Below are positions 36,001-39,000 of a stretch of DNA of 45,637 nucleotides, piece after piece. Within the stretch, counting starts at the first letter, position 1, and each line of letters opens with the position of its first letter. The position numbers are program-made. The stretch comes from a virus (taxonomy: Duplodnaviria > Heunggongvirae > Uroviricota > Caudoviricetes): positions 1-45,637 of IMG/VR virus record IMGVR_UViG_2529292910_000009. One strand, 5' to 3'.

Positions 36001-39000
36001 TGAGGAGGATAGATGGCGTTCACTGACCTTGAATATCAAGCGGTCAAAAAAGAAGTTCACCAATTCATTGAAAGCATAAGGCCGCCTGAACATATCCGCA
36101 ATGAACTGGATATTGTTTATAGCATCAATGACCAAACGATAGATATCGGCGAACAGCGCCCCGTGTGGCAGGGCAACCCAGGTGAAACAAACATCCTGCC
36201 ATCAGCAAGAATCAAGTACATACGTTCTCTGGATAGATGGAAAATCTATTGGATGCGGAAGGATATGAAATGGCATCAGTACAGTACTGAACTTTCGCTG
36301 ACTGATGCGCTTGAGCTTGTGCGTGCTGACCCGGATTGCTGCTTCTTCGGATGAGTGAAGAGACGTTTGGATGATGGATGGTCGCAGAGATGCGGCCTGA
36401 TTCTAAAATAGGATATAAAAAATGAGAATACTAGGTGTTAGAGCGGCGCCCAAAGTTACATCTTTTGTTGTATATTGCACTAATGAGTCTGCACTCAAAT
36501 GTGTTGATGTTATTAAAATACCTTCGACCTTAGACACACCAGAAAAATTAAAGTATGTGAGAAATAACATCCTCGACATTCTTAATTTATATAATGTTGA
36601 ATTAGCTGCCATACGCGTTACTGAATCAAACTCTGATAATCTTAGCATTGACCGCCTTTATATAGAAGCTGTTATTCAAGAAGCATTTTCAAGCAGTGAT
36701 GTAAGAAAATATTACACTATTAGAAAATCTGGCATGAAATCATCATTGAACCTAACAGAGATCGAGTATAAAGAAATATTGAAGTCACACCGCAATATAA
36801 ATGGAATCGATAATTCTGGTTTTACAACTGAAACAAATGAAGCTGTTTTGGCTGCTCTATCTGCGGAGGTAAGGGGATGCTAACTCCATACAAAAGAGCT
36901 GATGTAGAATTCGAATGGATTAGTGATCTAGAAGAACAGGGTTGTTTTTCAAAAGTATATCTGGCTCATGACAGACACCTAGCTCATGACTTGGTGATTA
37001 AAGAAATAGAAAAAAAAGAAACACTAACCACGACGACTACTTTAATGAAGCAAGGCTTCTCTATAAACATGCACATCCAAATATTGTGCAAGTTCAGTAT
37101 GCTGCTCAATGTGAGAGCAATATCTATATAGCCATGCCATTTTATCATAATGGTTCGCTAAACCAATTAATGAAAAAAAATAATCTTACAAGCAGGGAGA
37201 TAATACGGTATTCCATTCAATTTTTAAGTGGACTTTATCATATACACTCAAAAGGTCTTATGCATTTTGATATAAAACCTAATAACATTATGATATCAAA
37301 CAGAAATGAGGCCATGCTATCTGACTTTGGATTATCTCAGTTAGTCAATGAGGAATCGAGAGCTGCGCCTGAGTTTGGATATCATTTTCATGTGCCACCG
37401 GAATATTTTTCTTTATCAACAAATGATTATAATTTCACATATGACATATATCAGGCAGGATTAACCATATATAGAATGTGTGTTGGACATGATAATTTTG
37501 AAAGAGAAAGATCTGCATTTAGCACGATTGAACAACTCAGAGAGTCGATAATTAATGGCTGCTATCCATTAAAAGAGTATCCTCCCCATATACATAAAAA
37601 ATTAATAACAATAGTGAACAAATGCATTCATGTAGATCCAAATGAAAGATATCAATCCGTACTAGATGTACTAAACGATCTCTCAGCTATAAGTGATGGC
37701 GTTCTTGACTGGCGTCTACAGATGACGAAACCAACTAACGGCACATGCGAATGGCAAAAAAAGTCTGGGGACGCTATACTGTCTATAGTTTTTGACGCAG
37801 AAAATTCGTCTACTACTGGTTTTCGTTTATACGATGATGGGCGGAAAAGGCGTGCTACGAACTTAACAATATCCTCAGGATGTACCCCTACAAAACTGTA
37901 TAGGTTATTAAAGGATAACTGATCATGAAAAAGCGCGAGGAAGTAAGCAAGCTGCCTCGCAGACGTGATGCAGCATTAGCGGTTCCCTACAAAAAAGATG
38001 AGTTCATAAGCCCTTCTGATGACAAAAAATTTTCAAAGGCGAAAAGTTTTACATCTACATCTCTAAAAGATAAATACTTTAAAATCTAGCCCGGCCTCAG
38101 CGCCGGGTTTTCTTTGCCTCACGATCCCCCACCTAAAAAAACATAACTCATTGTATTTATTGATGTAACTCGCTAAACCATGCAGTTCTGATCCCTGCCG
38201 CATAACCTTCATCAGCCACATTTTCAAAAATAAATTTCCTTATATATCAGAATCATACTTCGTAGAGTTAATAAATCACCAAAATTCGTACAAATAGTTC
38301 TTAATAATGTCGAACTATTGGTTCATTATTATCGTCATCAGCAGGACGCATTACTCACCAGGGCGGTGAATATACAACGATTCGAATATGAATCTACGGC
38401 GCTGACAAAGCGCAATAACCAAAGTGAACTTTGGGGTGTGGTGAAGGGTTCATGGACGGGAATATGTCGCACGTAAAGCGGCGAGGCCTGTGGGACTATT
38501 GCCGAATTGAAGTAGGCCGAAACAGGTCGAAATGGGTCTCCCACCTACCACACCACCAAAGTTCATCAGGAGGTCTATATGACACGCAGAACTCAGTTCA
38601 AAGGCAATTCACGTTCTCGTCGTCGTGAGCGTTTAAAGGCAAAGGCATTAGCTAACTGCGTACTGGCCCGCGAAGAAGCAATAAGTTCAGAAGTATTACA
38701 CCGCCCTACTCTAAGCAGAGCGCAGATTCAGGCTAAAGGTACTCACGAAACGCCTGAGCGCATAGAAGACGCTAAGCCAATTAAGTTCATGGCACAGGAC
38801 GTGATCTGGCAACAGAAAGAATACAGACGCAATCTGGAGCGAGCAGCCATTGTGTACGCGAATGAGTTTGGACATAAGCAACCAGAAACTGGTGTATGTC
38901 TTCCAAACGTAGCCATTTACGCGGCAGGCTACCGGAAATCAAAACAACTGACGGCGAGGTGATTGATGACCACGCCTTCAGTTTTGCCGCAAAAGTTATG

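Follow-up and report, generated by a model that had tools for sequence, protein, structure and literature searches.

Why does the same 13-nucleotide (nt) word, CGCTGACAAAGCG, stand both ahead of the N gene and, on the opposite strand, between cro and cII in a lambdoid immunity region? The question was raised by a 45,637-nt stretch of Caudoviricetes DNA (IMG/VR virus record IMGVR_UViG_2529292910_000009, positions 1 to 45,637; hereafter the window), in which a first-pass annotation had taken the word for a boxA-like part of candidate nutL and nutR sites. Our analysis indicated, with a probability of about 0.95, that the word forms the centre of boxB, an RNA hairpin, in both nutL and nutR of a lambdoid prophage of the 933W/H-19B type. 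Such an element is not new: it was annotated in the 933W record (deposited in 1999) and has been dissected experimentally in H-19B and P22.

The 45.6-kb window held exactly two exact copies of the 13-mer, one within the pL-to-N leader (38400-38412, +) and one within the cro-cII spacer (34887-34899, -), each reading in the RNA sense of its own early transcript (pL to N on the plus strand; pR through cro to cII on the minus strand). The first-pass annotation had recognized the repeat and its sense orientation and had placed the copies where nutL and nutR are expected, a placement confirmed by the gene map and by the nut features of the 933W record; its coordinates were exact for the second copy and 2 nt too high for the first (38402-38414). 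The 13-mer was the longest RNA-sense word that the N leader (249 nt) and the cro-cII spacer (138 nt) had in common. In 5000 pairs simulated with a first-order Markov model, no shared word of 13 nt arose (the maximum, 12 nt, was reached once) and the analytic expectation was 4.7e-4, excluding a chance origin. RNA-sense identity between the two nut copies took the form CUACG-N-13mer-N', where N/N' was G/C at nutL and U/A at nutR. No other G+C-rich hairpin of the window had a GACAA loop. Two candidates for a third nut site were rejected: a near match at 12954 (2 mismatches) had no stem, and a weak TTAT-gacaa-GTAA at 19900 lacked a credible stem or context.

The 13-mer is itself self-complementary (CGCU-GACAA-AGCG). 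The nutL copy forms a 5-bp stem with a pentaloop, GCGCU-GACAA-AGCGC (GCGCUGACAAAGCGC; 38399-38413, +), with a folding energy of -8.5 kcal/mol (z -3.5) when taken alone, and the nutR copy folds as the hairpin UCGCU-GACAA-AGCGA (UCGCUGACAAAGCGA; 34886-34900, -). The outer pair was G-C at nutL and U-A at nutR, a compensatory change exactly where the identity of the copies stops. A G+C-rich stem of about 5 bp, a U-A closing pair and a purine-rich, GNRA-like 5-nt loop are the features of a boxB, as is a sense-oriented place in the pL-N and cro-cII intervals. The nutL 15-mer was identical to the experimentally defined P22 nutL boxB, GCGCTGACAAAGCGC; in the solved complex of the P22 N peptide with boxB (PDB 1A4T), GACAA is a GNRA-like pentaloop whose looped-out C contacts the peptide. 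In the 933W GenBank record AF125520 (window coordinate = locus coordinate + 34085), the annotated nutL and nutR each end 3' at this hairpin. A published H-19B oligonucleotide, RS664 ("antisense to nutR boxB of H-19B"), mapped to 34881-34904 with one mismatch outside the hairpin and contained the 13-mer, and a further published H-19B nutR-region oligonucleotide mapped to 34860-34885 with 2 mismatches. In H-19B footprints, protection by N with NusA/NusG extended over the spacer and over boxB with its loop G, and not over boxA (PMC3526286). Alignment with the H-19B/933W nut regions, the check proposed in the first-pass annotation, confirmed the nut sites themselves and placed the element on boxB, not boxA. 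An Rfam search of 34400-39000 (E<=1) matched no family, indicating that nut sites are not in Rfam.

It is very improbable that, in line with the boxA-like label of the first-pass annotation, the 13-mer is a divergent linear boxA bound by NusB/S10 and followed by an N-binding boxB in the form of CCAAAGT-GA-ACTTTGG. The 13-mer does start with CGCU as boxA does, and a hairpin does come after it at nutL. However, only 6 of its 13 positions agreed with the boxA consensus CGCUCUUUAACAA, or (C/U)GCUCUUUA(ACAA), and the word was sequestered in a stable hairpin of its own. The earlier remark that it differs from the lambda boxA consensus was correct, but the element so described is boxB. A better match to boxA than the 13-mer was CGCUAUUUUCACAA at 34918-34931. 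The 13-mer was not 5' of a spacer and boxB; it stood last, on the 3' side, in each of the annotated nut sites, lying 3' of the experimentally named H-19B nutR boxA and spacer, and in P22 and loci L009 and L011/12 the same word stood approximately 10 nt 3' of a canonical boxA.

The downstream hairpin of this boxA proposal fared no better. CCAAAGU-GA-ACUUUGG (CCAAAGTGAACTTTGG; CCAAAGUGAACUUUGG) was present at 38419-38434 (+), its end having been given 2 nt too high at 38436, and it was absent downstream of the nutR copy. It formed in a 45-nt fragment and not in the minimum free energy (MFE) structure of the whole leader. It was nearly invariant in the leader alignment, with only 1 compensatory cell, and it remained unchanged in relatives whose N carries a short arginine-rich motif (ARM), while changes in the ARM were mirrored in the 13-mer loop. 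It is not boxB. Its sequence overlaps the 5' arm of a long-range N-leader helix, to which it may be a transient alternative fold.

This helix was found by whole-leader folding and RNAalifold. Its 5' arm, GUGAACUUUGGGGUGUGGUG, lies at 38424-38443 (+), and its 3' arm, UACCACACC-A-CCAAAGUUCAU, at 38546-38566 (+), ending 2 nt before the Shine-Dalgarno (SD) sequence of N, AGGAGG (38568-38573); the helix joins the region just 3' of the nutL boxB to that immediately preceding the N SD. For the N leader as a whole, the MFE was -75.8 kcal/mol (z -4.1). RNAalifold recovered 20 pairs with one bulged A, 7 of them with compensatory (double) changes; 91% of alignment cells were paired, compared with 38-46% when the arms were slid, and 0 of 500 shuffles reached the score. 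At least four different inner-helix sequences occurred among the relatives, all still paired. The lambda N leader has a homologous helix (GGCUUUGGGGUGUGUG / CACACACC-A-CCAAAGCU) that also ends at the N SD. That leader has been described as strongly structured, and N and Nus factors bound at NutL repress N translation across it. It is also processed by RNase III. The helix of the window is likely to be an RNase III or translational-control element.

With the 13-mer assigned to boxB, the remaining parts of each nut site could be placed. At nutR, the boxA position (CGCUAUUUUCACAA; 34918-34931, -) is approximately 22 nt 5' of boxB with a small spacer hairpin between them, and it matches the consensus weakly. 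It coincides with the start of the 933W nutR feature, and oligonucleotide RS662 ("nutR boxA of H-19B") mapped to 34920-34943 with 0 mismatches. Among relatives this position was highly variable, reading CGCUCUUUUCACAA, CCACUUCCAACAA, CACCACUCACAA, CCCCCCACAA and others. The nutR spacer hairpin, GGAC-AUUC-GUCC (34905-34916, -), was found in the MFE structure and is covered by oligonucleotide RS663 ("nutR spacer"; 34901-34922, 0 mismatches); in H-19B, NusA and Rho bind in this nutR spacer (PMC3526286). Relatives kept its stem, with one A-U pair changed to G-U, and had AUUC, AAUC, ACUC or UCUC in the loop. The H-19B spacer dyad is said to matter only because its mutation can sequester boxB.

At nutL, a spacer hairpin, GAUUC-GAAUAU-GAAUC (38379-38394, +), was likewise found in the MFE structure, with seven loop variants and an invariant stem among relatives. 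Upstream of it, the pL transcript has its 5' end in 38337-38369 (+; AUCAGCAGGACGCAUUACU...), a segment that also holds the hairpin UCACC-AGGGC-GGUGA (38355-38369) and is near-identical to the lambda pL leader ATCAGCAGGACGCACTGACCACCATGAAGGTGA. The pL promoter escaped a simple sigma-70 scan, and the transcript start was placed by homology with lambda. The 933W record takes CGCAUUACU (38347-38355) as the start of nutL, although this sequence lies within the 5' end of the pL transcript. The 933W sequence CGCATTACT was rejected as a nutL boxA, being a conserved part of the pL transcript 5' end that lambda and P22 also have, without its serving as boxA in either. After the leader hairpin, the position equivalent to the lambda boxA reads AUAUACAAC / ATATACAAC (region 38347-38380), with no consensus boxA. 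Judged from its sequence, nutL has no convincing boxA, and the element is essentially absent there. The H-19B N reportedly has a reduced need for boxA and NusB, or none, and the weak or degenerate boxA found here agrees with this.

A cognate N with an N-terminal ARM is encoded near these boxBs. The gene (38579-38962, +; 127 aa) had 98% DNA identity with that of 933W, and its product carries the ARM ...F7-K-G-N-S-R-S-R-R-R-E-R18-LKAKALAN. The protein matched Pfam PF25694 N_peptide (E 2e-15), the family that also holds P22 gp24. The two ARMs aligned in register (window, FKGNSRSRRRER; P22, FAGNAKTRRHER, that is F-A-G-N-A-K-T-R-R-H-E-R), and the C-terminal 30 aa were 67% identical to those of gp24. 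In the H-19B N ARM (12-RSRRRER-18), the mutants R3H, S11F, R15C/P and R18P lose antitermination (PMC3526286); the N of the window carries the same residues at these positions. By analogy with 933W/H-19B, this N would bind its boxBs and act in antitermination. Codon 27 (38657-38659), just C-terminal to the ARM, encodes Cys in the window and Gly in 933W/H-19B and most relatives. When full-length N was searched against PDB sequences, all matches were spurious ones to RecQ5; N peptides are too short or too divergent for such a search.

The comparative set consisted of 80 viral contigs encoding the same N, and ARM and loop were tabulated over approximately 165 related loci; a separate scan of genome contigs gave 17 loci only, several of them incomplete. 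Exactly two 13-mers were found in 76 of the 80 same-N loci: the first closely preceded N on its coding strand, and the second lay on the other strand at a distance of 1.3-3.5 kb. Every relative of the same ARM class had the nutL boxB ahead of its N gene. Absence of the word from the nut regions of related phages, which the first-pass annotation had named as refuting its reading, was not seen: relatives carried it. Loop sequence followed ARM class without exception. The long ARM occurred with a GACAA loop (116 nutL and 111 nutR sites; GUCAA in one Salmonella nutL lineage), the short ARM with GAAA (49 nutL and 37 nutR sites), and the lambda-type ARM of a Winslowiella prophage with GAAAA. The short ARM (FNGSA[AS]GRRRERRAAL) is 7 residues shorter, and the relatives with it (L004 5874-5887; L100 5865-5900 and 3795-3815; L109-L111; L112-L149) had true GAAA-tetraloop boxBs at both nut sites. 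They kept the whole nutL/nutR frame, with AGGCU-GAAA-AGCCU or CGGCU-GAAA-AGCCG at the 13-mer position of nutL; at nutR, UCGCU-GAAA-AGCGA was the nutR hairpin of the window minus the loop C. Enterobacterial-type N genes (98% and 41-95% identity) were also met on very short contigs of Xanthomonas pisi (L003, 394 bp) and of a Segatella copri metagenome-assembled genome (L005 and L010), and are probably contamination of those assemblies.

The boxB stems varied in step with pairing. In the alignment, 95.6% of cells were paired, compared with 18-47% in slid controls, and 0 of 500 shuffles reached the score. Variants with G-U pairs (GCGCU/GGCGC and UCGCU/GGCGA) were included, demonstrating RNA-level behaviour and excluding a DNA palindrome. 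Folding, covariation and identity to the P22 boxB together establish the boxB fold. It is highly unlikely that the repeat is a functionless by-product, whether a chance match or a recombination "linker" common to mosaic modules. Short boundary sequences are indeed conserved in lambdoid genomes, and the nutR module does stand at a mosaic junction, adjoining different cro genes. However, chance was excluded by the simulation, the 13-mer was conserved in P22, Lonsdalea and E. albertii prophages despite unrelated flanks, and its loop co-varied with the N ARM. That the word acts as a palindromic protein site in DNA (e.g., an extra operator) is extremely improbable: at the DNA level its stem halves, CGCT and AGCG, do make an inverted repeat, but the asymmetric GACAA was always in transcript sense in the window and in every two-copy locus, the stems co-varied so as to keep the RNA paired, partly through G-U pairs, which DNA complementarity does not allow, and the 933W operators are annotated elsewhere.

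Some points weigh against the boxB assignment or the strength given to it. The loci in the ARM/loop tabulation are phylogenetically related, and the counts (116 and 111 sites for GACAA, 49 and 37 for GAAA) overstate the number of independent events. The 95.6% of paired cells is biased because a search for hairpins supplied part of the boxB alignment (L015). The N of the window differs from that of 933W/H-19B at residue 27 (C for G), and the nutR flank differs from H-19B by 1-2 nt just 3' of boxB.

If the 13-mer is the core of boxB, transcription from pL (for nutL) or from pR through cro (for nutR) would yield an RNA that folds into the 5-bp stem with its U-A closing pair and GACAA loop. The loop is expected to be GNRA-like with the C flipped out, by analogy with the P22 complex, and the N-terminal arginine-rich helix of N would bind it, as has been found experimentally for P22 and H-19B. 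N on boxB, together with NusA on the spacer, would loop back to the transcribing RNA polymerase. The polymerase would become resistant to the Rho-dependent tR1 region 3' of nutR and to downstream terminators, and terminator read-through would turn on the delayed-early genes. N-dependent read-through of the Rho-dependent tR1 just 3' of nutR has been described in H-19B (PMC3526286). A hairpin, UAUGCG-UUUCCA-CGCAUA, was observed at 34839-34856 (-), approximately 30 nt 3' of the nutR boxB, which is the position of the Rho-dependent tR1 of H-19B; lambda has a comparable GUAUGCA...UGCAUAC hairpin at that position.

The proposal that the 13-mer may define the nut specificity of an immunity group was borne out only in part: the word carries antitermination specificity, but it tracks the ARM class of N, not immunity. 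The nutR module (boxA position, spacer hairpin and boxB) was joined to at least 5 unrelated cro 3' ends, indicating that N, not the immunity genes, is what it moves with. The distance between nutL and nutR ranged from approximately 1.3 to 3.5 kb, and the sequence was shared with P22, which has another immunity type. Within this one N family, very small coupled changes in the N ARM and the loop might reset specificity; if the N/boxB pairs are orthogonal, GACAA would mark one of three or more specificity groups whose distribution is independent of cI/cro type. We regard this as an evenly balanced proposition. No description of a GAAA-tetraloop boxB class with a short ARM was found in the literature searched, the coverage of which was incomplete. 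The lock-step ARM/loop classes, and the natural GAAA-tetraloop class with its short ARM in particular, are the only potentially new by-product of the analysis.

The 13-mer itself taught nothing new on mechanism. The annotation of the window was corrected, fixing the positions of nutL and nutR and assigning boxA, spacer and boxB properly. In Shiga toxin (Stx) phages this early circuit ultimately licenses Q and toxin expression. The co-variation of ARM and loop (GACAA, GAAA and GAAAA) could serve to predict cross-antitermination between co-resident prophages, and the classes are a possible source of orthogonal peptide-RNA pairs.

The nut sites lie in what is, by gene order and DNA identity, a standard lambdoid immunity region with an early-control module of the 933W/H-19B type. 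It contains cII (34504-34800, -), cro (34939-35199, -) and cI (35245-35952, +), together with stk and its neighbours; its DNA was 98% identical to phage 933W and also matched many Stx-converting phages. A strong intrinsic-terminator-like hairpin, AGCCCGGC...GCCGGGTT, with a T-run (38088-38109, +), follows the stk operon and corresponds to the tM annotated in 933W. Elsewhere in the window, an inverted repeat of approximately 300 bp, approximately 98% identical, was present at 770-1072 (+) and 27291-27593 (-), 26 kb apart. It represents the common C-terminal ~95 codons and a terminator-like hairpin of two open reading frames (ORFs), 416-1045 (+) and 27318-27989 (-), whose N-terminal halves differ; these are possibly antirepressor-type paralogues. 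The replication-protein-like ORF 33168-34250 (-) and ORF 34271-34489 (-) contain peptide repeats of the QPQQPEAD type, encoded by short direct repeats at 33530-33591 and 34281-34433.

Compared with known systems, the order and positions of the elements in the window were those of the lambda nutL and nutR (boxA CGCUCUUA; boxB GCCCU-GAARA-AGGGC), where BoxA is the site of NusB/NusE and BoxB that of N. The lambda pL transcript 5' end and its CACC...GGUG hairpin are homologous to those of the window. However, in lambda the real boxA comes after the pL-leader hairpin, where the window has no consensus boxA; the window also differs in its loop (GACAA compared with GAAAA/GAAGA), its ARM class, an extra spacer hairpin and a poorly conserved boxA. 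P22 nutL has a consensus boxA, CGCTCTTTAA (CGCUCUUUAA), 10 nt 5' of boxB and no spacer hairpin, whereas the spacers of the window are 21-43 nt with a hairpin, and its boxA is weak or absent. In the nutR boxB of P22 the stem is another one, and two C residues oppose each other beside the loop. P22 gp24 and the N of the window have the ARM F-x-G-N-[SA]-[RK]-[ST]-R-R-x-E-R in common and a conserved C-terminus, while their central parts are unrelated. The nutL and nutR of H-19B/933W (AF125520; nutR/tR1 work of the Sen laboratory, PMC3526286) are essentially the same element as that of the window. The ARM of N is identical through residue 26, and the differences comprise 1-2 nt 3' of the nutR boxB and G27C in N, neither of which lies within the hairpin.

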